Source: Candidatus Onstottus arcticum (lineage in GTDB: Bacteria > Acidobacteriota > Blastocatellia > UBA7656). Taken from it: a stretch of DNA of 64,000 bases. The notes below the pieces were generated by a model. The model worked only from the letters and a program-made list of their open reading frames with translations, did not search any database and was not told the origin of the DNA. A program made the position numbers and the translations under genes. Shown piece after piece: positions 9,145 through 62,241 of this stretch; the stretch's first letter is position 1, and each line of letters opens with the position of its first letter. The DNA lies in contig JBBPIE010000013.1 in assembly GCA_038040485.1 (NCBI GenBank), positions 84,209-148,208 of the forward strand, written 5' to 3'.

Positions 9145-10149
9145 TTAAGGGATTGTCGGGGGCGGCACCTGGATTAATGGCTTCTCCCCCCCTCCGCAGC
9201 CGATGATACAGAAGGTCCCGAAAGCAATGGCTGCCACTACCAGAAGTTTGTTTCGCGGTGTCCAAAATCCCGGAATCGTAATATGCCCGGTCCATCGTGG
9301 AACAGTTGAGCCTGGAGCATTCGCAGTGATGTCCGACGAGTTTGGCGAGCCGCCAGCAGTGAATGTTACGGTAACCACCCCTTCAATATCGTCAGTCGGT
9401 CTTGTGATACTCTGTGACCCGATTTTGCCGATGTTCTTTTTGACGGTTATCAGGACCGGTTGGCCGCGCACCGGCTTGCCATTGCAGGTGTACTGCAAGT
9501 TGATATTTTGAGCGGTCCCGCGTTGCACTCTAAGGCGGTCGGGCGCCGGTCCGGTTACGCGCCGATTACCGTCGATTGTTACTGAACGGATCGCGCAATT
9601 GATCTGGCTTGATTCAGCCTCGAGTCTTACCGTGCCGCTCCCAGCGTCGATTACCGGGTGACCGTTCCGAACCGCAATGCGAAAGCTTGCTCCGCTGGAG
9701 GATGTGTACGCAGAGCCGCAAGTCTCGATGTAGGCGATGGCCTCTTGCTGTAGTTTGACCATCATATCCCCGACGAGGAGCGTGGCGATCAGGACGGGGC
9801 GTTGAGGATCATCCGTGGGCATAGTCAATTGCGTTGCGAGCCTCACTACTGCGCCTGGTGTGAGTCTGACCTGGCCGATTGAGTCCAGCATCACACACGC
9901 TGTTGAATCGTCGGACGCTCGCAGCAACTCGCCGCCCCAGATCGGCTGCTCCCCATAAGCCGCGCGGCCGTTGATCGATATCTCGCCTAGTGAATAGACC
10001 TTGCCGATAGGAGCGAACGCGACGGCACGAACCCGAAATGGTTTGCCAATGCTGAGGTCGTCTGCGCGAGCCACTCCACTCGCACTAAGGCTCACGATCA
10101 ACGTCGCAACCGAGACCAGCCGAGATAATCGAAGACGCTGTTTCGTCAT
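9145..10149 (-). CDS. Secreted protein with FecR-like domain and C-terminal hydrophobic segment
   Basis: Signal peptide; GE.L...DDSTA.V.LDS.G.VRL.PGAVVRL pattern resembles the FecR domain; 4-bp overlap with the upstream vWA gene. Confidence 0.4.
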   Translation of the reverse strand: MTKQRLRLSRLVSVATLIVSLSASGVARADDLSIGKPFRVRAVAFAPIGKVYSLGEISINGRAAYGEQPIWGGELLRASDDSTACVMLDSIGQVRLTPGAVVRLATQLTMPTDDPQRPVLIATLLVGDMMVKLQQEAIAYIETCGSAYTSSSGASFRIAVRNGHPVIDAGSGTVRLEAESSQINCAIRSVTIDGNRRVTGPAPDRLRVQRGTAQNINLQYTCNGKPVRGQPVLITVKKNIGKIGSQSITRPTDDIEGVVTVTFTAGGSPNSSDITANAPGSTVPRWTGHITIPGFWTPRNKLLVVAAIAFGTFCIIGCGGGEKPLIQVPPPTIP

Positions 10150-13061
10150 CTCCGTTTCCCCTTTCGCTCCGCGGCCCCTCGCAAATTGCTGCCTGATCCG
10201 CCAGTTCCGGTAAGAGTTCCTCCAGGGTCAGGTGCTCCGATACTGCCGGCTGGATTCATGCGCTTCAGCGGTGGCAAAACAAGCGTCGTGTCAGATGTTT
10301 GGCGAACCGCCTGATTGTTGGCTTGACCGCAAGGGAACTCACAGCACGTAGCAGTGTTGTCCTGTCCCTTGCCACGAACTGTCACCTTAACAAACCTGGT
10401 CTTGGGGTGCTCATTCGCGTTCGAGAACCTCTGGATAACCTTTAAGCTCTGGCCCGCTCGTTTTGTCGCAGCCGTCGGAGGCGGTGGATTGACGGCTTGC
10501 GTGATCACGCCCGCAAGGGATGCAGTGTCATTGTCTACCGGAACCGTTATGCACTTTCCATTGTCAACGAATGCGAATGCGAAAACCGCTTCCACAATAT
10601 CCAACGGATTAGAGTCAAAGACGTAGAAGGTGACTTCGAATATGTCACCCGAACGAGTCAGTGTCGGAGCCGGATGATCTTGCGTCCCATCTGAATTGAT
10701 CAGAATTACCTGCGGCACTATGTGGGCGAGAATGTTGAGCGAAACTTCCCCGGCATCACTGCTGAATTTGAGCCTGCCCTGAATGAATTCCGGCAAAAGA
10801 AGTTTTGGCGAAGAGGTAAACCCGGGGACGAATCCGGGAATGGCAGGCTTGAATGTTAAGTCAAACGTCTGCGTATCGCCTGGCGCAATTTCCATTGGAA
10901 ACTCTTTTTGCGGACCTTGAGGCACAACGGAGAAAACCCCGCTCTTGTCTTTTTTCTCCTTGTTGCCCACCATTCGGAAGAGCTTGAAGTCCAAGTTGGC
11001 AAGCAAGACACAGCCGGTATTCGTGATCGTAAATGACAACGATCGACTTTCGCCCACATTGATGTCTCTAAAGTTAAGGGAGCTCGTGCTCAACACCGCT
11101 TTTGCGGAACCAGAGCAGATGGTTAGTTCCGATGTGTTTCCGTTCGAGTCTGTGAGGGTGGCTGTGTAGAAGCCGCTCGGAGAAACCGGCAGCCCGCTTG
11201 CGCTGAAACTGTTGCCGACAAGAGGCGCGCTGCCAAGGAAGATCACATTATCCAGAACAACTTTGTCCGTCGTACGTCTGAGATTGGCAGCGAATATCTC
11301 GACCGTCCCGCCACCAAGAGGAGGGCTGTTGATTTGACCTGCTATCGTCACCGTTGCAATAGCGGCGTTTCCATTGGAAGCATTCTGTACAACAACGGTG
11401 TCCGGGAAATTAAGGAGCGTGTTAGGCCCTTCATCCGCGTCTCCAACATCGTTGAGAGTTGGTCCGTCGCAAACGCTCGCAGGCTCGTTCGCCGGGAAAG
11501 GCTCGGAGCTGCCCAGGTCGATCGGAGTTTCGCTACCGGAAATATCGTTCATCGAGATCGTGTTTCCAACGTTGTGAGTTACGGCGTTGAATACACCGGG
11601 CCGTGGATCGAGCACACAGATACCTGCCTGGATGTTGTTCTCGAGTTTGTTGAGCTCGATCCGATTGAATCCCGTGTTATCGGAGGGGCAGACCGGCTGG
11701 ATGACAATTCCTGCGTGAAGGAACCCTGTGATTCTTAGGCCGCGCACGACGTCGCGGTTGGAGCGGATCATTATTCCATCGTCGAGTTGGAACTGCCCAT
11801 CAATCGACACCCTCCGATCACAAACGATCGCCTCGTCTTGCGATGTCTCCGCGCAAGTCACCTTAACCGGGATTGAAGGCGCGCAACCTGCTGCGCACCC
11901 GCAGATGGTGATGTCGGGCGCGGTGAGCGGAGGCAACGGTTGGCTCGGACGGATCGTCATCCCGGAGCTGAACGTTATTGTTGTGCGTCCGCCGTTGGCG
12001 TTTGCCGTCTCGATCGCCTGGCGCAGTGAACGTGGGCTTCCCTCCACGAACGGGGTACCTGGAGCGGTATCAGCAGTGGTAGCCACAGTGAGGCTGCGCA
12101 ACGCGATGTTGCCCCTGAGCGCCCTCCGAACGAAGTCCGCAAATTGTTTCACCTGACATCCGCACTCCTCCTCAAAGGTCGCCGTGTCGACTACACTGTG
12201 TTTCGTTTTGGGTTTGTTGCACTCGGTTGGGACGATGACCTCTACTACGCCGGGTAGATCGGCGGGCGGAGAGGGGAAGGCTAAACGTTCGACGAGTAGT
12301 TTGGCATCTTCGAGCTCTTTGGTCTCGGTCGGAACGCCAATTAAGATCACGTCCAGCTCGGCCTCACCTGCCCTTACGCGCGCTAACTGGGATGCCAGGA
12401 CGCCGTTAACACGGTCGTCGTCATTGTTGCTAGGCTCGCCGTCGGTTGACAGGATGAACACACGGCGAGCGCCTGAACCTGCAACCTGGTCGGCTTGCGA
12501 GATCGCTTTGCCGAAGTCAGTCTCGCCGGCTGGGCACGGGGGGATGTTGCTGTCGAGATCCGGACAAACCACCAGCGGTTTGATCCGGTCGGCTGCGGAC
12601 ATGGCATCCGCGTCTGAGCCTATCCGCGGCGTGAGGGGCAGGATGATCGAAGCCTCGCCATCGAACAGTACCGCGCCCACCGAAACCGAGCCGTCGCGAG
12701 GTATCACTGAAGGGTCGAGCAGCGCGCGCCGTACTCCCTCGATTTCAACGTTGTAGGTTTGCCCTCGCCCATCGCTGCTGGTGCCCTCGTGCGGACCCTC
12801 GATCTTGTTTTGCATGCTTCCCGAGCGGTCGATGATGAAGACAAGATTGGTAAGCGCTTGCGTGTCCGGACAGTCTGGAGGTTGCTCCGCTGCATGATAC
12901 CCACCGAGCCGCGGGCCCATCATCGTCACCGCGAGCCCCATCGAGATTGACAATCCAACGCAAGCGATCAATCGAAAACCTCGCAACTTGTTTCGCGTGC
13001 GACCGCGGCTTGTTTGCGCCTGTGGCAAGGCGCCGGCGATCGGGGAATCGAGCATACTCAT
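10146..13061 (-). CDS. Large secreted vWA-domain protein with parallel beta-helix-like repeats and C-terminal beta-sandwich domains
   Basis: MIDAS motif LVFIIDRSGSMQ; N-terminal TM/signal; GIVI, NRIELN..AGICV and NTISMNDISG repeats suggest a beta-helix. Start placed at ATG 13061 (MSMLDS), which has a GAGGAGG Shine-Dalgarno 8 nt upstream; the ORF track extends to 13244. Confidence 0.7.
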   Translation of the reverse strand: MSMLDSPIAGALPQAQTSRGRTRNKLRGFRLIACVGLSISMGLAVTMMGPRLGGYHAAEQPPDCPDTQALTNLVFIIDRSGSMQNKIEGPHEGTSSDGRGQTYNVEIEGVRRALLDPSVIPRDGSVSVGAVLFDGEASIILPLTPRIGSDADAMSAADRIKPLVVCPDLDSNIPPCPAGETDFGKAISQADQVAGSGARRVFILSTDGEPSNNDDDRVNGVLASQLARVRAGEAELDVILIGVPTETKELEDAKLLVERLAFPSPPADLPGVVEVIVPTECNKPKTKHSVVDTATFEEECGCQVKQFADFVRRALRGNIALRSLTVATTADTAPGTPFVEGSPRSLRQAIETANANGGRTTITFSSGMTIRPSQPLPPLTAPDITICGCAAGCAPSIPVKVTCAETSQDEAIVCDRRVSIDGQFQLDDGIMIRSNRDVVRGLRITGFLHAGIVIQPVCPSDNTGFNRIELNKLENNIQAGICVLDPRPGVFNAVTHNVGNTISMNDISGSETPIDLGSSEPFPANEPASVCDGPTLNDVGDADEGPNTLLNFPDTVVVQNASNGNAAIATVTIAGQINSPPLGGGTVEIFAANLRRTTDKVVLDNVIFLGSAPLVGNSFSASGLPVSPSGFYTATLTDSNGNTSELTICSGSAKAVLSTSSLNFRDINVGESRSLSFTITNTGCVLLANLDFKLFRMVGNKEKKDKSGVFSVVPQGPQKEFPMEIAPGDTQTFDLTFKPAIPGFVPGFTSSPKLLLPEFIQGRLKFSSDAGEVSLNILAHIVPQVILINSDGTQDHPAPTLTRSGDIFEVTFYVFDSNPLDIVEAVFAFAFVDNGKCITVPVDNDTASLAGVITQAVNPPPPTAATKRAGQSLKVIQRFSNANEHPKTRFVKVTVRGKGQDNTATCCEFPCGQANNQAVRQTSDTTLVLPPLKRMNPAGSIGAPDPGGTLTGTGGSGSNLRGAAERKGKRR

Positions 13062-13787
13062 AATCCAAGCCTCCTCAGTTGAACTGCGTGGGCTGATGCG
13101 ACTATAGGGACCGTCCCGGGACTCGGCTATGCGCATCACCAAAGCAACGCAGTTGTCAAACGAAGCACTCCTGCCTTTGACGCAAAGGCAAACCGTCAGC
13201 TTTGTAACTGTGCCTATCCTTAATTGACGAAATCTGCCGGGCAATCAATGCAAATACCCGCGCGGAAGCGGGACCTCCCCAGGGACGTGCGCGACGACCG
13301 GTCCATTTGGAGTGGGCAGGGCCGCTCCTCGAGGAAGGACCAAAAAACGCGCGTCGTCTTCCAGTGCACCGCGGGCAACGCAACTTGTCGGCTCGCGCGA
13401 AAAGCTGACGCGCACCCAAGATTGGTTTTGACCTTGCGACCGCAAAACACCTCAGGTATACTCGCGACCTCACGTATCAAAAGGAGTTAAGCCGTCGACT
13501 ATTATCCAAGCTCGGTCGCGAACGATAAGCCAGAAGCCTAAGCAAATTCACTTTGATTATTAAATCGATCGACTTTGAGTTATTATGCCGTTGATTCTGT
13601 ATTCGCAGCGCAGGAAGCCTCGAAGGGCAACCCCCTTGCAAATCATTTTCTGAGCCAACCGACATTTCGCCGCAGGCTCGCCGGCTGATGTTGGGATGAA
13701 GATACGCTCGTTCAGTCTTGCCTCGCACGGTCCGCAACGCAGCACCCGAGACCGTGCGCATTAGAGAAACTAGAGGTTCCCTTCGTT

Positions 13788-16700
13788 ATGGTTCGTGGGT
13801 TCTTCCTGACTGCCATCGCATTGCTGCTTTTCACAACGCCTAATGCGTTCGGCTCCGCTATTGCCGGCCGAGCGGCGGAGGCTGCGCCTTACACACTTGT
13901 GCTCGTCGATGGCAGCTCGAATGCGGAACTTGCCGCGGCGCGCGATTTTATCGTCGCACAGGGCGGCACGATCGCCGTTGTACTTCCGCCGCACGCGATA
14001 CTGGGATGGGTTTCAGCGGAGACGGGCGCGCGGATTCTTGGCAAGCACGGTATCAAGTCGATTCACCGCACCGTGGTGGACCAACGCTCAGCCGGCTTTT
14101 CGGATCGCGAGACCCAGACCGCGATTGGTCTGTTTAACGACATCGTCTCGGGACGGCGCGCGCGCCAGGCCAAGCGAGAAGCAAAAAAACTCTCCGCAAA
14201 GGCACTCCCGGGTCTGACCGACTGCGCGCAGCCGCATCCGGCCATTAACAAGGATGACTTTATTCGCAACCTTCGGCTGATGGGCGCGGAAGACTCAATC
14301 AAGGGAATCCAGTCGACCGTCACGCCTCAGTTCTTCTCCAACAGCGATTCCATGGACGGAACAGTCGCGGTCGCCGTCTTTTTGATCGAGAGCACCGGCG
14401 AGATCGATCCCAATACTTACTCTTGGAGCCAAGCCGATCAGACCACCGCAATCGCGCAAGTCCTCGACGGCCTGAACTGGTGGGTCGAGCAATCAAGGGC
14501 GTTCAACCTCGCCCGCCCGCTTCAGTTTACGTTGGTTCAATACACGGCTTCGAATCCAGCTTGCCAGCAGCCATACGAACCCATCTTGCACCCCGGCCGC
14601 GATGCGAATCTGTGGATAGATCGAATCATGAACAACGTTGGAGCAACGGGGGGTGATACGTTTGTGAAGGTCGCCGCCTTTGATCAACGGCTGAGAGACG
14701 AGAACCGAACCAACTGGGCTTACTCGATGTTTATCGCGTACAACCCGCCCCCGGCGCCGGCGGCTTTCACAGACGGGCGAGCTTCCTGGGCGTACATTGG
14801 CGGCCCGCACGTGAATTCGCTGTTTCGAAGCTTCGGCTGGCCGCTCTCGCGAATTGCTAGTCACGAAGCCGGACACATCTTTTTCGCGTGCGACGAGTAC
14901 TTTCAACCAGGATACCAAACCTGTAGCTGCACCTGTGCGCCTGAGTTGAGACCTGACGCGCTCAACGGCAATTGCCAGGATGCGGCGTGCGGACTCAATT
15001 CTACCGGGTGCATGATGCGGCTCAATGAGTTGTCGCTCTGTCCGTTCACCGTAGCGCAGATCGGATGGACCGGCGCGGTTCCCAAACCCGCGCCGACTGC
15101 TCCTGTAGGAGTCGTCGCAACCGGGTCCTCACCCTCGCAAGTGAACTTGATCTGGTTAGACACATCGACCGTCGAAGACGGATTCCAGATAGAGCGGCGC
15201 GGCGGATCGACCGCCGAGTTCAGCCAGGTCGGCGTTGTAAGCGGTAACACCGTAAGCTTCGCCGACTCCGGCGTGTTGGCGAACACAGCGTACGCCTATC
15301 GAATTCGCGCCTTCAACAACGCGGGCTCTTCACCTTACTCGAATGAAGCCGCGGTAGTGACGCCGTCAAGCCCCTCGGCGCTGTCAATCGCCACAACCAG
15401 CCTGCCGGACGCAACTGTTGGAGTGAGCTACAGCCGGACGCTAGTGGCAAGCGGAGGGCGGCCGGAATACGCATGGCTGGTCGAGAGCGGCGCGCTGCCG
15501 CCGGGGCTTTCGATGTCGCAATCTGGCGGCATCTCGGGCACTCCGTCCACGGGCGGCACCTTCAACTTCTCTTTGCGAGTGACTGACGCCAACGGCGGCT
15601 CGGCTGCAAAAGCGCTTACGCTGGTGGTCAAGCCGGCAGCACCCCTAAGCATCACTTCCACCCAGCTTCCCAAAGCCTCGGTCGGCGCTACCTACAGCCA
15701 GAATCTGGGCGCCTCCGGAGGACAAACTCCTTACACATGGTCGATCCAGTCAGGGAATCTGCCTGAGGGAATGACGCTCAACCAAATCGGGGTGATTTCA
15801 GGAACACCCGAGCGGTCCGGCTCTGCGAGCTTCGTCTTGAGGCTTACTGACGCGACCGCCTCAAGCGTCTCAGCCACACTCTCGATCATCATCAACCCGT
15901 CGGCCTTAATCCTGAACCTGAATACCGCGTCCTTGCCCGACGCAATCGTCGGGCAAGACTATTCACAAACGCTCAATGCAGAGGGTGGCGATCCACCCTA
16001 TCGATTTGAGATCACGAGCGGGCGACTGCCCGAAGGCTTGCGGCTATCGAGTACGGGGGTGGTCTCCGGGAAGCCCACCGCACCCGGCGAGGTCGAGTTC
16101 GACCTTCGCGTCGCTGATCAGAGCGGACAGTCTGTGGCCAAGTCTCTATCGATAGACGTCGATCCGCCCCCTCAGTTCACCATACTGAGTCCGAGCCTCC
16201 TCCCTGTTGCGGCAGTGGGCGTTCCCTATCGACTCGAGTTCAAAGCAACTGCCGGGGCGCCGCCCTATGAATGGATCAAGAAGAAGAAGAAAAAGAAGTT
16301 TGGAGTCTTGCCCGACGGCTTGACGCTTTCAAAAGACGGAGTGTTGTCCGGCACACCGACAACACAGGGTACTTTTAATTTCACCTTGCGAGCGTTCGAC
16401 GCCAACGAAAAACTGGCGTCCAGTCCGTTCACTATTGAGGTTGGTCCGCCTCCGCCTCCGTTGGCGATAAGAACCGAAGCCCTTCCGCAGGCGCTGCAGG
16501 GCCTTCCCTATTCGGCGGCCCTCGAAGCGTTTGGAGGCATAGGTCCTTACACCTGGGAGATTGAAAGCGGAGCCGTGCCTGCCGGCTTAGTCATGAGCGC
16601 TCAGGGCGTTATCTCCGGGACAGCGGCATCGGCCGGCGTAGGAACTTTTACAGTTCGAGCCAAAGATACGCTTGGCACTTCGACTGTAAAATCGCTGTTC

Positions 16701-18401
16701 ATAACCGTAACCCTTCCGCCTCCTCCGCTGGTGATACTGACCGTGTCGCTGCCCGAGACGTCAGCCGAGAAGTTCTATTCCCAAACACTGTTCGCCAGCG
16801 GCGGCGTCCCTCCCTACGCGTGGACCATCTCGAGCGGCAGCCTGGCGGCCGGGTTGAATCTTTCCGCGGGTGGCACGCTTTCCGGGACGCCGACCGGCCC
16901 GGGAACCAGCGTCTTCGTTGTGCGTCTGACGGATTCCGCGCAGCAGTCAGTCACGCGGACGCTGGCCGTCACCGTCAAACCTGCGGACAAATTGGCGCCG
17001 TTCGGCGCGTTCGAGACCCCGGATTACGGCGCAACGCTCAACAACATCGCAACCGGAACCGGTTGGGCTTTGGACAATGTTGGAGTGGCGACTGTCGAAG
17101 TCATTCTAGACGGCCAGAAGGTCAGCGAAGGGGTCTACGGTTTAAGCCGTCCCGATGTCGGCTCCGTCTGGGGTAGCTTCCCCAACGCCGCGCGAGCGGG
17201 TTTCAGCTTCAGTCTCGACACGACCAGGTTCAGCAACGGCCAACACACGCTTGCCGTTCGGGTCCTGGACGCCGCGGGCAACGCAACTTTGATTGGAGCG
17301 CGCCCTGTACTCTTCCAGAATCAGGTTCTCATTGTCGTCACCACCAACGTGACGCGTGGCACGAAGAACCAGCCGTATAGTTTCCAATTGTTGGCGGCCA
17401 ACGGAAAGCCTCCTTACTCGTGGACGGTAAGTTCAGGTTCATTGCCCCCAGGGCTCTCGCTAAATCTTGCGGGCGTAATCTCGGGCACGCCCACCGTTGT
17501 CAACAACTTCACGTTCACAGTGCGCGTGACCGATTCGGTTGGAGCCGCGGCGCTGGCAAGCTTTTCGCTAACCATCTTGTCCGACATCCCGATTCTCAGA
17601 GTTCTAAGCTCGGGTCCGCAGACGCAGGGCCTCACCGGAGTTGCGTACTCTCAACAACTCTTCTTCACAGGCGGCGTGCCGCCCGTTGTCTGGAGTATGG
17701 GAACCGGTTCACTCCCGCCGGGACTGACCCTGGGCGGCGCATCGGGGATAATCTCGGGCACGCCAACGCATGTCGGGACGTTCAACTTCACCGTACGAGT
17801 GACCGACTCCGTGCAGACTACCGATGATTCAGATCCGATCTCGATCACCGTACTCCCGGGCCCGCTTCTTATCCTGACCACCGGCGATCTAACCAAAGGC
17901 ACCAAGGGCACGCCGTATTCGTTTGTGTTGCAGAAAGCCGGCGGAGCGCCGGCTTACACCTGGTCGCTCGCAAGCGGAGCGTTGCCTCCGGGTCTTGCGC
18001 TCAACGCCACGACCGGAGCTATCAGCGGCACGCCGACTCTGGATGGCGAGTTCACATTCACGGTCAAGCTCACCGATTCACTGCTCGTGAACGTCACGTC
18101 GGGGACTTTGAGGATCATCGTCGACCCGGCGCCGCTGGTGATCACCAGCGGGGGCGATCTGACGTCGGGCAAGCTCAACGTCAACTACTCGTTCCAGCTC
18201 CTGTTCACCGGAGGCAGAGCGCCGTACACATGGGCTCTCGCAACTGGAGCGCTTCCAACAGGACTGACGCTGGACACGGCAACCGGACTCATCTCGGGCA
18301 AGCCTACTGCAATCGGCACATTCACGTTCACGGTTAGCTTAACTGATGGCCAGCCGGTAACGGTGCAATCCCAAACGCTCAGGATAGCAATAACGCCGTG
18401 A
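13788..18401 (+). CDS. Giant secreted protein with a putative HEXXH zinc-metallopeptidase domain, an FN3 domain and about 12 He_PIG-type (putative Ig) repeats
   Basis: Signal peptide; SHEAGHIFFACDEY; FN3-like PSQVNLIWLD..YAYRIRAFN; about 95-aa repeats with consensus LP.A.VG..YS..L.A.GG.PPY.W.i.SG.LP.GL.L...G.isGTPT..G.F.FT.RVTD. Confidence 0.7.
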   Translation: MVRGFFLTAIALLLFTTPNAFGSAIAGRAAEAAPYTLVLVDGSSNAELAAARDFIVAQGGTIAVVLPPHAILGWVSAETGARILGKHGIKSIHRTVVDQRSAGFSDRETQTAIGLFNDIVSGRRARQAKREAKKLSAKALPGLTDCAQPHPAINKDDFIRNLRLMGAEDSIKGIQSTVTPQFFSNSDSMDGTVAVAVFLIESTGEIDPNTYSWSQADQTTAIAQVLDGLNWWVEQSRAFNLARPLQFTLVQYTASNPACQQPYEPILHPGRDANLWIDRIMNNVGATGGDTFVKVAAFDQRLRDENRTNWAYSMFIAYNPPPAPAAFTDGRASWAYIGGPHVNSLFRSFGWPLSRIASHEAGHIFFACDEYFQPGYQTCSCTCAPELRPDALNGNCQDAACGLNSTGCMMRLNELSLCPFTVAQIGWTGAVPKPAPTAPVGVVATGSSPSQVNLIWLDTSTVEDGFQIERRGGSTAEFSQVGVVSGNTVSFADSGVLANTAYAYRIRAFNNAGSSPYSNEAAVVTPSSPSALSIATTSLPDATVGVSYSRTLVASGGRPEYAWLVESGALPPGLSMSQSGGISGTPSTGGTFNFSLRVTDANGGSAAKALTLVVKPAAPLSITSTQLPKASVGATYSQNLGASGGQTPYTWSIQSGNLPEGMTLNQIGVISGTPERSGSASFVLRLTDATASSVSATLSIIINPSALILNLNTASLPDAIVGQDYSQTLNAEGGDPPYRFEITSGRLPEGLRLSSTGVVSGKPTAPGEVEFDLRVADQSGQSVAKSLSIDVDPPPQFTILSPSLLPVAAVGVPYRLEFKATAGAPPYEWIKKKKKKKFGVLPDGLTLSKDGVLSGTPTTQGTFNFTLRAFDANEKLASSPFTIEVGPPPPPLAIRTEALPQALQGLPYSAALEAFGGIGPYTWEIESGAVPAGLVMSAQGVISGTAASAGVGTFTVRAKDTLGTSTVKSLFITVTLPPPPLVILTVSLPETSAEKFYSQTLFASGGVPPYAWTISSGSLAAGLNLSAGGTLSGTPTGPGTSVFVVRLTDSAQQSVTRTLAVTVKPADKLAPFGAFETPDYGATLNNIATGTGWALDNVGVATVEVILDGQKVSEGVYGLSRPDVGSVWGSFPNAARAGFSFSLDTTRFSNGQHTLAVRVLDAAGNATLIGARPVLFQNQVLIVVTTNVTRGTKNQPYSFQLLAANGKPPYSWTVSSGSLPPGLSLNLAGVISGTPTVVNNFTFTVRVTDSVGAAALASFSLTILSDIPILRVLSSGPQTQGLTGVAYSQQLFFTGGVPPVVWSMGTGSLPPGLTLGGASGIISGTPTHVGTFNFTVRVTDSVQTTDDSDPISITVLPGPLLILTTGDLTKGTKGTPYSFVLQKAGGAPAYTWSLASGALPPGLALNATTGAISGTPTLDGEFTFTVKLTDSLLVNVTSGTLRIIVDPAPLVITSGGDLTSGKLNVNYSFQLLFTGGRAPYTWALATGALPTGLTLDTATGLISGKPTAIGTFTFTVSLTDGQPVTVQSQTLRIAITP
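16278..16298 (+). repeat. (AAG)n/(AAA) purine-only tract encoding KKKKKKK inside a He_PIG repeat
   Basis: aagaagaagaagaaaaagaag read directly from the sequence; it replaces the x-SG segment present in paralogous repeats. Confidence 0.9.
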
Positions 18402-42971: not shown

Positions 42972-45900
42972 CTATTGCCCGCTGGGAAGCGTGGGCCACA
43001 ACCTCACCGAGCCGTCTTTCGTGCTGGTAATCATTATGCGATTGTCTGGCGAAAACGCGATCGAATCAAGCGCCTGTTTTGCAGGCTCACTATAGAGCGT
43101 GACCAGCCTGCGATAAGACGCGGTACTCCACAACGTGACCTGTCCGCCGATGTCTCCCGTGGCGAGGACTTTGGAGTCCGCGGAAAACGCCATGCAGGAG
43201 ATGGAACTCTGAAGACCGCCGAGCCAGGCGAGCGGCCCGCCAGGTTCAAGATGTTCCATATCCCACAATTCTACAGATGGGCCGAGCTTCGTATTGCCGG
43301 ATATCGCAAGGAATCTGCCGTCGAGCGAAAAAGTTGCGAGTAATGTGGCGCCTCCTCCCACAGCGAAAGGGCCCTTGAATTGTCTCGGTGCGCCCTGTGC
43401 GTCCGGAGCATTCCTTCCCGAAGCCTTCACCAGAGTCATAATGAGCTGTCGAGAGCGAGCATCCCACATCTCAGCGGTCAATCCATAATCTTCGCTTGAC
43501 CCTATGACAACCATTTTGGAGCTGTCGGGCGAAAAGACTAGCGAGTGAACCGAGAGGATATGAGCATTGTCCAGGGTCGATGCTGTTTTAGAAGCGATAT
43601 CCCACAACTCCACTTTTCCCTTAGTATCAGCGTCGTCAAAACAGGCGAGTGTCTTTCCATCAGGCGAAAACTCCATACCAGATACCTTGCCGCTGTCAGT
43701 CGGAGCTTTAAGAACGAAGGGCTGATCCTGCAAATCTTCGTTCCACAACTCCAAGCCCCATCCGGTGTGGACGCTGTTGTCGTTTTCTTTCGTTTCGATC
43801 CAGTTAAGCGCGACTACGTTCTTTCCATCAGGTGAGACTACGAGCTCCCTAACAGCTTTTCGGCCCTTCTCAGGCGGATTAACGTTGAAAGTGGCCGTCA
43901 ACTTTAGCGGCTGAGTTTGCCATAGTTTTATCGTGCTGGCGCTGCTCAGAATCGCGACAAATCGTCCGCCAGGAGAGTTGCCGACAGTGGGATAGGGTTG
44001 CGCAAACTCAGCGGAAAGTTTCAATTCTTGCCGCGACTCAGCGTCCCACATCCTGACTTGGGCTGTTTCCCTCGTGCCGTCGGTTATGAAGCGTCCCGTG
44101 TCATAGCGAGCGAGCATCAAAACCGACTTACTGTCCGGTAAGATGAAGGGGGTTTTGATGCCTCTATCGCCGCTTTCGACGGCGACGGAATCTCGGGGAT
44201 TGCGCGTGTTCCAGAGTCTCACCTTTCCGGCATCGTTTGCTGCCAACTTCTCTCCGTCGGGAGAAAAGGTTAACGAGGTTATCCAGCCCTCTTGTCCCAA
44301 GAGCGGAGCTATCAACTCAGGAGACTCTCGCTCCCCGGGTCGTGGCGCTTTATATAGCCGCAATGTGTTATGGCCGCCAATGGCAAACTTGTTTCCCTGA
44401 GGAGCGAAAGCCATCACGGTAGGCGAGAATTCCGGAGCGGCAAGAGCATCCGCGAATCCTACCGCGGCCAACGGATCCTTCATCTTTGTGTCAAACACTA
44501 TGAAGCTGTTTCCGATATTAGTCCCCAGGATGATTGTTTTACCATCGGGTGAAAACCTCACTGACTCCCCACCCCCTGGGCTATCCAGGGAAAGCCGTCC
44601 CGAATCGACGTCGAAGAGCCGCAGCGTGCCGTCCCAGCCGACTGTAGCGAGCGTCTTTTCATCGGGCGACAGCGCAAGGTCAATTACGCTTCCTGTGACG
44701 CCAGCAATCTCCATCCGTTTCTTCGACGTTGCAAGATTCCACGCCACAACGCGACCCTCATTGCTGATCTCTCTCGCGCTGCCCGTAAAGAGCGTCTTCC
44801 CGTCGCGCGAGAAGACAAGCGAGGTGATCCGCAAACCATCTCCCGGAAGCACCGCAGGGGCTTCGGTTGACGTGAGTTTGTGCAACATCACCCGCGAGTC
44901 GCCGCTGCAGGCCAGAATGCTGCCGTCGGGCGAGACCGCCAAAACGTTAACAGGAACACCTCCGGTTGGAAGAGTTCTCAACTCTTGCATGGTTGAAGCG
45001 TCCCAGAGCTTGACCGCATGGTCGCCTGCGGTTGCCAGATACTTTCCGTCGGGAGAAAAAACCACGTCTCTTACAATTCCATCGCCGCAGTCCAGCGTTC
45101 CCGCTTCCCTGTGATAAAGCCAGTTTAGATAGCCCCACTCGAAGCTGCGCAAATCCTCCTGATTGGTCGAAGGATCTTCAAGCAACTCCCGCGCGTGCTG
45201 GACGTTCTCGTCGTAGTAAGCCTCCTGCGCGAGATTGATATTCGCCGCGTAAAGCAACTTGCGCGACCGCTCGCCTTCTGCCCTGGCCCTGGCTTCTCCT
45301 TCTTCGGCTCTCTTTTTTTCTCTCCCTGCTTCTGCCGCCGCCGATTCAGCCTTCTCTTCATTATCCTTTGCGATGCGCGCCTGGTAGCCGGCCTGCTCCT
45401 CTGCAAGACCCGCTGCTACTGAGTTCTGATAAGCAGTATCGGCCGCCTTCTCAGCGTTATTCCGCTCCTTATCGGCCCTGTCTCGCTGCTCATTGGCTTC
45501 CACCAAAGCGGCCTCAAGTTGCTGCTTTGATTCATTCGCCTCGACTCTTTTGCTGTTTGCGAAAACAAGCGCACCGAGCGATAAAAGGAACGCGAGAGCG
45601 AAAATGAGAGCTGTCAATCGCGTTCGCTTAATCTCTTTCCTGCGCTGCGCTTCACGGTCGCGCGCTTCTTTGTCGCGCGCCTCGCGGCTTTCGTCCAGGA
45701 AATTCATCGCCGCTTCAAACTCCGGATAATAACGACGCGCCCACGTCTTGTTAGGCTTGCTTCCATCGCGCCAATCCAGCGCAAGCTGCAAATCAGGGTC
45801 GCGATATAATCCCGCTTCTCCCTTCTCGTGCAAGACCGATGTTTCGGCCAGTCGGCGATAGATGCGGGCGGACCGCGCTTCTTCATCGACCCACGCTTTC

Positions 45901-59606: not shown

Positions 59607-60662
59607 TCAGCGGCCGGCCGCCACCAGCATCACTCGATAGCCTGACATCGCGGCGAGTTCCTCTTCCGCGTGCGCGCGCAACTCGGCGGAACTCATCCTC
59701 ACTATTTGCTCCAGCGTGTAGGTGATCATCATTCGCTTCGCGACCTCGTAGCCCAGCAAGTAGCCGCCTCGCGAGGGAAACCGTTCGTCGTAGCTTTGAG
59801 TGAACCAGCGCTCGTACTCGTCGGGCGGCGCTGACGACCTGATCAAATAAAGGTAGCGGCCGGCGTTTGAACTCAACTCCTTTTGCTGCGCCGCAAGTTC
59901 GTCTTCATTGAAATGCAGATACATCGCCCGTGGCTGACCGTCGTAAGCCTGTTCGGCGCCGGCCACCGCGATCCCTTCGACCAACAGCGGGATATGGGGC
60001 GCGCGAAAGTCCTCGGACGAATCGCCGGACTGCTGGAACAAGAAGCCGAAGTGATAAAGGTGAAAGAACTCGTGCGTGATCGTCATCCGGACTTGCTCCG
60101 GCGTGTAAGTAGCGAGTACCTCGGCGCCCAGGCACAGGGTGTCAGGAATCCCGCGGTCGTTCTGCACCGGCCGCACCGCTCCATCAAACCTGAAAAAGCT
60201 CAAGCCGATGTATACATCGCGTTGATGCTGGTACTCGCGAAAGCGGAAGTCTTTGAAGGTGATAATCCCCACGAGCAGGCTGTCGGTGATCGTGCGGTTC
60301 AGTTCGCGGATGGCTTCAACGCGCTCCGGAACACGGATCAGAAACTCATTGAGCATTGCGAGGCGCCGCTCGGGCTCGGCGCCGCGATAGACTGCTCGCT
60401 CGAAATAGTTGCGGTGCTTCGACCCGATGGTCCGCCTCCAGATTCGGCGCTGGGTTCGCAGCGGTTTGTCATTAGCCTGGTCCCAGAACAAAAGGAAGTC
60501 ATCCACAATGTTGATTACTTTGTGATTGCCGAGAAGCCTTTCGAGAGCTGATCGTCTGAGTGCCTCGTGGTCGGATTGAAGCTCAACTGCGCGTGTTGTC
60601 CCCGCCAGGCAAAGCACGACAACGAATGCTGCTACTAGCGCTTTCGTTGTCTTGCCAGTCAT
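59607..60662 (-). CDS. Secreted putative zinc-dependent peptidase (DUF2268-like, HEXXH)
   Basis: Signal peptide; HEFFHLYH motif. Confidence 0.5.
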   Translation of the reverse strand: MTGKTTKALVAAFVVVLCLAGTTRAVELQSDHEALRRSALERLLGNHKVINIVDDFLLFWDQANDKPLRTQRRIWRRTIGSKHRNYFERAVYRGAEPERRLAMLNEFLIRVPERVEAIRELNRTITDSLLVGIITFKDFRFREYQHQRDVYIGLSFFRFDGAVRPVQNDRGIPDTLCLGAEVLATYTPEQVRMTITHEFFHLYHFGFLFQQSGDSSEDFRAPHIPLLVEGIAVAGAEQAYDGQPRAMYLHFNEDELAAQQKELSSNAGRYLYLIRSSAPPDEYERWFTQSYDERFPSRGGYLLGYEVAKRMMITYTLEQIVRMSSAELRAHAEEELAAMSGYRVMLVAAGR

Positions 60663-60841
60663 CTGACGGCTCCTTTGCCGGTGGTGACCCGCGCCGACTG
60701 ATTGGCCGCTGGTGACTTATGAACGTTGACGATCGGGGAAGTTGCGGCCCGATTAGAATATGCCAAGTCGGGCAAAACACAAAGACATTCCTGCCTTTTG
60801 GCGCGCGTCAGATGTTTGCGGTCAGCTCCGCTGAAGGACAT

Positions 60842-61110
60842 CATACCCACCTCGTGAGAGGTGGGTTCCTGATGCTGTGGCCTACAGAACGTCGCAGCGT
60901 TGCCCTCGCATTTCTGCATACCCACCTCGTGAGAGGTGGGTTCCTGATGCAGTGGCCTTCGAGCGAACCCTCTTTGATCTGTGGCGTCTCATCGTAGGCT
61001 GGAGCATCACCGACCCACCTCTCACGAGGTGGGTATGCAAACAGCGTAGGCGGACGTGCTCTTCTGTAGGCTCGAGCATCACCCACCCACCTCTCACGAG
61101 GTGGGTATGC
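60842..61110. repeat. About 270-bp nested palindrome: two direct and two inverted copies of a 34-bp unit (CATACCCACCTCGTGAGAGGTGGGTTCCTGATGC) with partially palindromic spacers; MITE-like
   Basis: Copies at 60842-60875 (+), 60916-60950 (+), 61004-61038 (inverted) and 61076-61110 (inverted). Confidence 0.8.
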
Positions 61111-61278
61111 GCGAAAAGATGACGCGCTCCCAGGACTTCGGATTCCCTTCGCGCGCGCCCCAGTCTATAATTCCCGCTCTTCAAGGATTTGGTTCCGGGA
61201 CTGGCCTGAACCTTCGGAACATTTCACGAGGAACGCGGCCCCAATGTTATGTGCGATGCCGCAAATCGGAGAACACAT

Positions 61279-62241
61279 ATGAGAAAGATGCTGACTGCAG
61301 GTCTGTTAGCCGGCGCATTGATCGCGATTCCTCATGCGCGAGCCTCGAACGCCAAAGGCACGCTCGCCGAACGGTTGGGGTTTGGGCCGACGGACAAGAT
61401 ACTGATCATCAACGTCGATGACGTAGCCGGCAGCCACGCTGCTAACGTTGCAGCGATCGACACACTCGAGAACGGGCTTGCGACTTGCGCAACCATAATG
61501 GTCCCGTGTCCGTGGTTTCCCGAGATCGCGGCTTATGCGAAGGCGCATCCCGAACGCGACTTCGGCTTGCACCTGACTCACACCAGCGAGTGGAAGACTT
61601 ACAAGTGGGGACCTGTTGCCAGCAAGAGCGAAGTGCCGGGACTCGTCGATCCGCAGGGCTATCTGTGGCCGGACATCATGAACGTGTACAGTCACTCGAC
61701 GCCCGAGCAGGCGTACATCGAGGCTCGCGCCCAGATCAAGAAAGCCCTCGACGCTGGGATAGACGTGACACACCTCGATTCGCACATGGGCACGCTTCAG
61801 TACAACGACGCGTACTTTCAGGTTTATCGCCGGCTCGCCAAAGAATTCAACGTGCCGTTGAGGATGGCGGCACAAGAAGTACTGGCTGCGGCCGGCGGCG
61901 GGCAGCAACGGGCGCAGTTGGATTCAGACGGTATTGTTTGTCCCGACTACTTGATTTATGGAGGCCCGAACAAGGGCGAGTCGGTGACCGATTATTGGAA
62001 GCGAATGTTGAACTCGCTCAAGCCGGGCGTGACCGAGCTGTTTATTCACGCTTCGAAGGCCGGCGAAGAGATCCAGCACATCACCAACTCGTGGAAGGAT
62101 CGCAACACCGAGTATGAGTTGTTCACCCGCGATCCCGAGATTCGGCGGATTCTGGAATCGCAAGGCGTCAAGCGGATCGGCTATCGGGCGCTGCGAGACT
62201 TGCAACGGAAAGCTTCGCAGACGCGAAGCAGCGGCGGGTAG
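61279..62241 (+). CDS. YdjC/ChbG-family carbohydrate deacetylase, secreted
   Basis: INVDDVAGSHAAN...G....IMVPCPW N-terminal motif of the YdjC family; signal peptide; GGAGAA Shine-Dalgarno before the ATG at 61279. Confidence 0.6.
   Translation: MRKMLTAGLLAGALIAIPHARASNAKGTLAERLGFGPTDKILIINVDDVAGSHAANVAAIDTLENGLATCATIMVPCPWFPEIAAYAKAHPERDFGLHLTHTSEWKTYKWGPVASKSEVPGLVDPQGYLWPDIMNVYSHSTPEQAYIEARAQIKKALDAGIDVTHLDSHMGTLQYNDAYFQVYRRLAKEFNVPLRMAAQEVLAAAGGGQQRAQLDSDGIVCPDYLIYGGPNKGESVTDYWKRMLNSLKPGVTELFIHASKAGEEIQHITNSWKDRNTEYELFTRDPEIRRILESQGVKRIGYRALRDLQRKASQTRSSGG

Follow-up and report, generated by a model that had tools for sequence, protein, structure and literature searches.

A gene-less cluster of GTAG-headed REPs between divergent genes of a Blastocatellia genome, probably part of a REP-Y1 transposase (REPtron) family

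The intergenic region between the divergent ydjC and peptidase genes of Candidatus Onstottus arcticum contains a 332-bp palindromic element, located at 60800-61131 in the 64-kb stretch of DNA analyzed here (the window). We interpret this element, with a probability of roughly 80%, as a gene-less, non-autonomous and BIME-like cluster of four GTAG-headed REPs, which belongs to a REP-Y1 transposase (REPtron) family in the Blastocatellia. Associations between REPs and Y1 genes are known as a kind, but the two-domain enzyme, the REP with a linker, the bounded copies with target duplications and the Blastocatellia host are apparently new. The evidence for the family is at the level of sequence and was obtained from MAGs and metagenome contigs, in which some stretches are masked and ends are broken by repeats.

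The 22-nt core ACCCACCTCGTGAGAGGTGGGT, composed of ACCCACCTC-GTGA-GAGGTGGGT, is present in exactly four copies in the 64 kb, on the forward strand at 60845 and 60920 and on the reverse strand at 61013 and 61085, and none of 100 shuffled sequences contained any match to it. The four-copy hairpin palindrome between divergent genes that was described in the initial annotation is thus real, and so is the order of its copies, direct, direct, inverted, inverted. The cores start 75, 93 and 72 nt apart, where spacings of about 73 bp had been suggested. The copies extend to 42-48 nt, and the complementarity of the nested inverted pairs is 88% over 48 nt for the outer pair and 83% for the inner pair. 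As had been anticipated, the region is predicted to fold into a single long hairpin on both strands (-187.6 and -187.2 kcal/mol, z = -17.5 and -14.6). The overlapping ORFs, already suspected to be spurious, translate nothing but the repeat. We suggest that the ORFs across 60719-61184 should be dropped from the annotation, and that the intergenic region should be described as two short promoters with a repeat cluster between them.

The anatomy of the element was derived by comparing the four window copies with 37 loci in GTDB genomes that contain a 20-nt core. The comparison showed that the repeated unit is a GTAG-headed sequence of about 45 nt rather than the 34 bp originally proposed, with the consensus 5'-GTAGGCyrGAGCATCAnnn-ACCCACCTC-TCAC-GAGGTGGGT-ATGC when read on the strand that carries TCAC in the loop. 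Each unit consists of a GTAG head, a 14-nt linker, a 9-bp stem and a 4-nt loop, with extra GCAT/ATGC pairing across a bulge. The sequences CCTACAGAA and TTCTGTAGG, previously taken for partly complementary spacers, represent the GTAGGC head of the unit. All four units in the window have the 9-bp stem and the 4-nt loop, and the head located 14 nt from the stem reads GTAG in three of them (REP1, REP3 and REP4) and GAAG in REP2.

The element was also found to be longer than the 270 bp first assigned to it, as its 332 bp include two inverted 21-nt end motifs, here called T and T'. The left motif T (GGCGCGCGTCAGATGTTTGCG; 60800-60820, forward strand) has three mismatches to the family consensus GGTGCGCGTCAGATTTTCGCG and is separated from REP1 by 21 nt (60821-60841) that are absent from most other copies, in which T directly abuts CATACCC. 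Next come REP1 (60842-60885), which reads GTAGGCCACAGCATCAGGAACCCACCTCTCACGAGGTGGGTATG on the reverse strand and has the GTAG head and the 9-bp stem, and REP2 (60916-60960, reverse strand), in which the hairpin is intact but the head mutated. A centre of 33 nt (60961-60993) separates these from REP3 (GTAGGCTGGAGCATCACCGACCCACCTCTCACGAGGTGGGTATGC; 60994-61038) and REP4 (GTAGGCTCGAGCATCACCCACCCACCTCTCACGAGGTGGGTATGC; 61066-61110), both on the forward strand. The right motif T' (CGCGAAAAGATGACGCGCTCCC on the forward strand; 61110-61131, reverse strand) has three mismatches and abuts REP4, as in the family consensus. The heads of all four units point to the centre (- - + +), and the same architecture of T, two REPs, a centre, two inverted REPs and T' was observed in L001, L004, L018, L021, L030 and L036.

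A covariance model built from related REPs identified the four units described above and no further ones in the 64 kb, with E-values from 7.5e-14 to 1.8e-8. The scores were 46.9 bits for REP1 (E 3.5e-11), 36.9 bits for REP2 (E 1.8e-8), 56.8 bits for REP3 (E 7.5e-14) and 47.1 bits for REP4 (E 3.1e-11), and the other matches with E < 1 were reverse-strand partial matches to the same four hairpins. Elsewhere in the window, a palindrome without REPs is located at 13347-13418, where a degenerate T is followed by a near-perfect T' (13396-13418, one mismatch). This palindrome is situated in another divergent intergenic region, between ORFs at 10146-13244 (reverse strand) and 13788-18401 (forward strand).

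About 26 of the 37 GTDB loci identified with the 20-nt core belong to the same family and come from Blastocatellia-type MAGs; the others are hairpins with no relation to it or elements of a second type. Members of the family are either built as T-(REP)n-(REP')m-T', with lengths of 90-525 bp and 1 to 5 units, or are REP clusters without T, and about half of the gene-less clusters are of the latter kind. Arrangements such as 3+1 or 5+2 were observed elsewhere, compared to 2+2 in the window. All clusters in the family are extragenic, and the neighboring genes are arranged in tandem in seven cases, divergently in six and convergently in four. Related MAGs contain 4 to 9 exact cores each, on several contigs and always outside genes, and the source genome, surveyed within the 64-kb window, holds one cluster. 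The junction between T and the REP is identical across many genomes, and one MAG contains two near-identical bounded copies of 90 bp (L002 and L020) at different sites and with different duplications. In total, the covariance model identified 217 REPs in the fetched loci. The suggestion that the element is a non-autonomous transposable element holds insofar as it belongs to a dispersed, extragenic, multi-copy family with bounded copies flanked by 9-bp duplications, but the description can be narrowed beyond a generic MITE, as its units are GTAG-headed REPs. The roughly 26 loci are dispersed, and the cluster is absent from the orthologous site in several relatives. One of the MAGs, labeled "uncultured Clostridia" (L030, CAZJQQ), has a near-identical flank and the same insertion as a Blastocatellia MAG (L015, JBGQGO), and its label is probably wrong.

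The clue to the identity of the family comes from L003, in which inverted arrays of the unit enclose two overlapping ORFs with matches to the Pfam domain PF01797 (Y1_Tnp; E 1e-22 and 2e-13) and to the NCBIfam model transpos_IS200. A metagenome search with the first of these ORFs retrieved 28 loci. All 12 close homologs (71-87% identity) are flanked by REP units of the window type, as are the genes in L078 and L079, whereas none of the 16 distant homologs (46% identity or less) has such REPs. A Y1 gene located between inverted window-type REPs was thereby found in 15 contigs (L003, L050-L061, L078 and L079), with the units on the minus strand upstream, on the plus strand downstream and with their heads toward the gene. 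Where the gene is intact, it forms one ORF that encodes 277-283 aa and contains two Y1 domains. The 3' outer side of the gene cassette is closed by T in L003 and L079 and by a degenerate form of T in L078. A tblastn search with both Y1 types gave no match in the 64 kb. The REPs beside the intact gene often have mutated heads (GCAG, GGAG, ATAG or TTAG in L050, L053, L078, L079, L052, L056 and L058), and almost all of the outer REPs in these arrays retain GTAG; it could be that the mutated heads immobilize the Y1 gene itself.

The distant homologs have REPs of their own. In all 11 cases with examined flanks, the same two-domain ORF is surrounded by REPs in the same layout, consisting of GTAGG, a 14-15-nt linker, an 8-9-bp stem and a 4-nt loop and repeated every 64-74 nt. 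The TAG in the head of the first downstream REP doubles as the stop codon of the gene. In an alignment of 14 REP types, GTAGG is invariant, 99.2% of the stem cells are paired and six of the nine pairs show compensatory changes. The covariation score was 0.65, as compared to 0.13 for shuffled alignments, none of 500 of which reached it, and to 0.08 or less for slid controls.

The two-domain Y1 proteins form a family of 113 clusters at 90% identity, all with a length of about 280 aa, and the named members are all from the Acidobacteriota, Blastocatellia or Pyrinomonadaceae. Both halves match the TnpA proteins of IS200, IS608 and ISDra2 by sequence, and in the predicted structure (pLDDT 92, pTM 0.90) each half resembles IS200/IS605 TnpA (PDB 2VJU, 2XM3 and 2F4F) with TM-scores of 0.84-0.93 on target. 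Domain 1 scored 85 bits with the transpos_IS200 model (cut-off 55), whereas the RAYT model NF047646 (REP_Tyr_transpos) gave 17.8 bits against a cut-off of 80, such that the protein does not carry the RAYT signature; the structural match to E. coli TnpA-REP (PDB 4ER8) was also weak. Among 34 aligned members, Y123 and Q127 in domain 1 are invariant and align with Y127 and Q131 in IS608, while the HUH position of this domain reads x-L-R with an invariant arginine. In domain 2, H210-x-H212 is invariant, and the Tyr/Gln position is occupied by Y or F, with no glutamine. Each active site in IS608 combines the HUH motif from one subunit with the tyrosine from the other. Because the two halves have kept complementary parts of such a composite site, Y/Q in domain 1 and HUH in domain 2, the enzyme may function as a single-chain pseudo-dimer with one active site. 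No description of this two-domain architecture was found in the literature searched, and unexpectedly long Y1 proteins have previously been discarded as fusions or errors (Quentin 2018).

The window units conform to the definitions of REPs and REPtrons (Nunvar 2010, PMC2817692; Di Nocera 2013, PMC3733652) in being short (20-45 nt), imperfect hairpin palindromes with an unpaired 5' GT(A/G)G head, here GTAG in REP1, REP3 and REP4, and the family has a Y1 gene between inverted REPs, although in related contigs and not in the window. Like the REP/BIME-RAYT systems of E. coli (yafM/TnpA-REP), Pseudomonas and Stenotrophomonas, the repeats are extragenic, multi-copy and frequently clustered, and their sequence co-varies with the clade of the enzyme. 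Like in the REPtrons, the first 3' REP abuts the stop codon of a Y1 (HUH) gene. Unlike the RAYTs, however, the Blastocatellia enzyme consists of two fused IS200-like domains, and unlike classical REPs, its repeats have a 14-nt linker between head and stem. Furthermore, the spacing in the window is regular, as in BIMEs, but the period of about 72 nt, the order ++-- in place of a strict alternation of orientations and the Blastocatellia host are not those of the classical BIMEs, and many Blastocatellia copies are closed by a 21-nt inverted T with 9-bp target duplications. The inverted REP pairs, able to form a long hairpin, are reminiscent of REPINs, which are thought to be replicated as a pair in trans by a transposase gene that is no longer mobile (Bertels and Rainey 2011), and near-identical 90-bp bounded copies are present at two loci in one MAG. 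The clusters contain up to 2+2 units, and more elsewhere, rather than one pair, and the REPIN/RAYT literature searched contained no mention of target duplications for REPINs.

Likewise, both halves of the enzyme can be aligned with the TnpA proteins of IS608, ISDra2 and the Sulfolobus IS200 in the alpha-D Tyr/Gln and HUH motifs, but these proteins are homodimers with two composite sites, as opposed to a single chain in which neither half retains both parts of the site. The IS200/IS605 elements also differ from the Blastocatellia REPs in that their ends are not inverted repeats and that they multiply as gene-bearing units. With the modular MITEs, such as the pneumococcal BOX and the Neisseria Correia elements, the family shares inverted end modules, variable internal repeats and duplications around the bounded copies, but its internal repeats are REPs associated with a Y1 gene, and no parent IS was found in the fetched loci, plasmids or viral contigs.

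By analogy with the TnpA proteins of IS608 and ISDra2 and with E. coli TnpA-REP, each REP would fold into a 9-bp hairpin on single-stranded DNA. The Y1 enzyme would recognize this hairpin and cut near the GTAG head, after which REPs or REP pairs would be excised and re-inserted, and arrays could expand via local duplication of units of about 72 nt. In L053 (2760-2860), and also in L055, a duplication of the first upstream REP and of the 17 nt that end the preceding gene (TCTCCGTGATTGARGG) has given rise to a 62-nt tandem unit, which indicates that REP arrays grow by local duplication. The data demonstrate the anatomy of the repeats, their membership in the family, the association with the gene, the covariation in the hairpins and the presence or absence at the orthologous site, whereas movement of the units by the Y1 enzyme and the route by which the window copy arrived are inferred. 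Several observations sit uneasily with this reading: the 64-kb window contains no Y1 gene, the enzyme scores as an IS200-type protein rather than as a RAYT, the order ++-- departs from that in BIMEs, the bounded copies have duplications that are foreign to known Y1 transposition, and the REP/RAYT literature searched reports no mobilization of REPs in vivo by any RAYT.

The genomic context in related genomes provides additional information about the window copy. The gene order, with ydjC divergent from a DUF2268 peptidase gene that is followed by an acyl-CoA dehydrogenase gene, is kept in relatives. The cluster is missing from the orthologous site in L042-L044 (83% peptidase identity), L082/L083 (76%) and L045 and L046 (73%). 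The promoter-proximal blocks, at 60738-60789 and around 61166, are located outside the element and are conserved in relatives without the cluster. The block at 60738-60789 (reverse strand), which is about 50 nt long and located upstream of the peptidase gene, does not vary among the relatives (TTGTGT-N16-TATTCT) and probably represents the peptidase promoter, and a TATAAT at 61166-61171 (region 61160-61175) is conserved on the ydjC side. A scan of 60500-61400 for consensus promoters and terminators called no site, neither in the element nor in the conserved blocks.

In L053, L055 and L078 (63% identity for the peptidase, 84% for the dehydrogenase), a REP-flanked Y1 gene is located immediately upstream of the orthologous peptidase gene, and no more than about 10 nt separate the outer REP or degenerate T from the conserved promoter block; the window cluster thus occupies the place of the gene in these relatives. 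Other palindromes were also seen at this locus. In L039 (3560-3860) and L040 (80% identity), a palindrome of about 300 bp with T-like ends is located at the same spot and contains four different hairpins (GAGCCCGATTAATCGGGCT) with spacings of 79, 73 and 71 nt. We considered whether it is an orthologous element with a changed hairpin, but rejected this because the REP model gave no match and only the degenerate ends resemble T. Yet another nested palindrome, of about 260 bp, is found in the peptidase leader, downstream of the promoter block, in L082 (3205-3490) and L083 (76% identity). The intergenic region between ydjC and the peptidase gene is a site that collects palindromic elements.

One alternative to the hypothesis of a REP cluster that was moved by a Y1 enzyme is that the peptidase gene has an empty nest upstream of it, that is, two REP arrays that once flanked the Y1 gene at its ancestral location and stayed in place when the gene was deleted, with no transposition to this site. 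The position of the gene in L053, L055 and L078, ending near the same promoter block, the identical head-to-head order (- - + +) of the REPs around the gene and in the window, and the lack of a target duplication at the window copy are all consistent with this scenario. However, no trace of the gene or of its leader was recognized in the 33-nt centre, where similarity scores were no better than those of shuffled sequences, each of the four cores matches the consensus exactly, which would not be expected of an old relic, and closer relatives (L042, L082, L045 and L046) lack REPs at the site, such that several independent and clean losses would be needed. Moreover, the gene on the far side is a spermine-synthase/TPR gene in L053, L055 and L078 rather than ydjC, and the Y1 gene is located at other sites in L051, L052, L060 and L079. 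We therefore regard this scenario as rather unlikely, although the window copy may be a relic that was resident at the site and not a recent insertion, since it lacks a duplication and sits where relatives carry the Y1 gene. The initial annotation also proposed a regulatory palindrome that governs peptidase and ydjC together, and such a cis-acting element could be an operator array or a cruciform. The location between the two genes and the very stable cruciform that could be extruded favor this idea, but it is hard to reconcile with the occurrence of family units at unrelated loci in every gene orientation, with the absence of the cluster in syntenic relatives that have kept the promoter-proximal blocks, with the unrelated palindrome at the site in L039 and L040, and with the result of the promoter and terminator scan. 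We consider such a role very improbable; most likely, the cluster lies in a dispensable gap between two divergent promoters and has no dedicated regulatory function. Finally, the period of about 73-75 nt, the hairpin repeat of about 36-45 nt and the arrays of 2 to 5 units elsewhere might bring to mind a degenerate mini-array of the CRISPR type or the gene for a structured RNA. The likelihood of this is close to negligible, given that the "spacers" of different units and of different genomes are homologous to each other, that the arrays are inverted pairs, that the called genes and ORFs at the examined loci included no recognized cas genes, the consistent neighbor of the arrays being the Y1 transposase, and that an Rfam scan of the whole window matched no family.

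Another explanation starts from the end motifs and holds that the bounded copies are classical MITEs moved by a DDE transposase, with T as the 21-nt terminal inverted repeat of an unseen IS that makes 9-bp staggered cuts, and with the REPs as cargo or later colonists. Among the nine complete T-bounded copies examined, a 9-bp duplication is perfect in four (L018, L036, L030 and L002) and imperfect in three, with eight of nine matches in L020 and L004 and seven in L021. The chance of at least seven matches at one site is about 1e-3, and the duplications are a true insertion footprint. Target-site duplications, which the initial annotation suggested looking for in other copies, are thus present at the predicted offset in seven of nine bounded copies, but the window copy (2/9 matches) has none despite its terminal inverted repeats T and T', and neither has L001. 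The two 90-bp copies in one MAG, with different sites and duplications, also argue for a DDE element, as do the REP-less end motifs at 13347-13418 and the degenerate ones around other hairpins in L039. The parent IS would be expected to have the ends GGGTGCGCGTCAG...CTGACGCGCACCC, and ISKra4-family elements have GGG ends and 9-bp repeats. Yet, no IS with T-like ends was identified in the 534 kb of fetched loci, where solitary T motifs near long ORFs were chance-like only; a BLAST search of the element against plasmids gave no match, and a scan of viral contigs for T gave three matches, two inside coding sequences and one in a small palindrome, none of which is an IS end. Furthermore, the T-REP junction is constant in many genomes and T also closes the Y1 cassette, which indicates that T belongs with the REP system, and T is missing from about half of the gene-less clusters. 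The chances are, in our view, somewhat against a DDE-driven MITE. Either an unseen DDE element moved the bounded packages, or the Y1 enzyme inserts DNA unlike its relatives, as known Y1 transposition makes no target duplications (Nunvar 2010, PMC2817692). That the two-domain, single-site enzyme itself inserts the packages with a 9-bp staggered cut of the target seems improbable, but if true it would represent a target-duplicating mode of transposition unknown for HUH/Y1 transposases, and would make this the first system of the REP type whose movement leaves a readable footprint.

REPs and domesticated transposases are widespread in bacteria, but the copying of a REP has never been directly observed. 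The Blastocatellia family offers several handles on this process, including REP arrays with hairpins that co-vary with the enzyme clade, a single-chain enzyme resembling an IS200 dimer with exactly one predicted active site that can be tested by mutagenesis, and bounded copies in which clear 9-bp duplications serve as an insertion footprint. The findings extend REP-transposase systems to the Blastocatellia, which are abundant in soil and represented almost exclusively by MAGs, and the repeats of the family visibly break the assemblies of their genomes.

Some of the loci identified with the 20-nt core have a single-domain Y1 gene with inverted ends of about 90 nt and three hairpins (L013, L017, L022, L027, L026 and L029). 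The ends contain the same 20-nt hairpin with GTAG directly before it, and there is no target duplication. Four of these copies, some of which are frameshifted, are from one MAG labeled Actinomycetota (L013, L017, L022 and L027). We considered the single-domain Y1 gene as the cognate gene of the window units, but dropped it because the ends differ, with no GTAGGC-linker REP and no match to the REP model R1. These loci look like the TIRYT/TIRtron type, in which an Acidobacteria Y1 gene is located between long multi-hairpin inverted repeats (Di Nocera 2013, PMC3733652). In another part of the window, at 44136-44231, where the Rfam tRNA model gave no match at the gathering threshold, ARAGORN called a tRNA-Glu(TTC) that is unusually long at 96 nt and has its anticodon at position 40.
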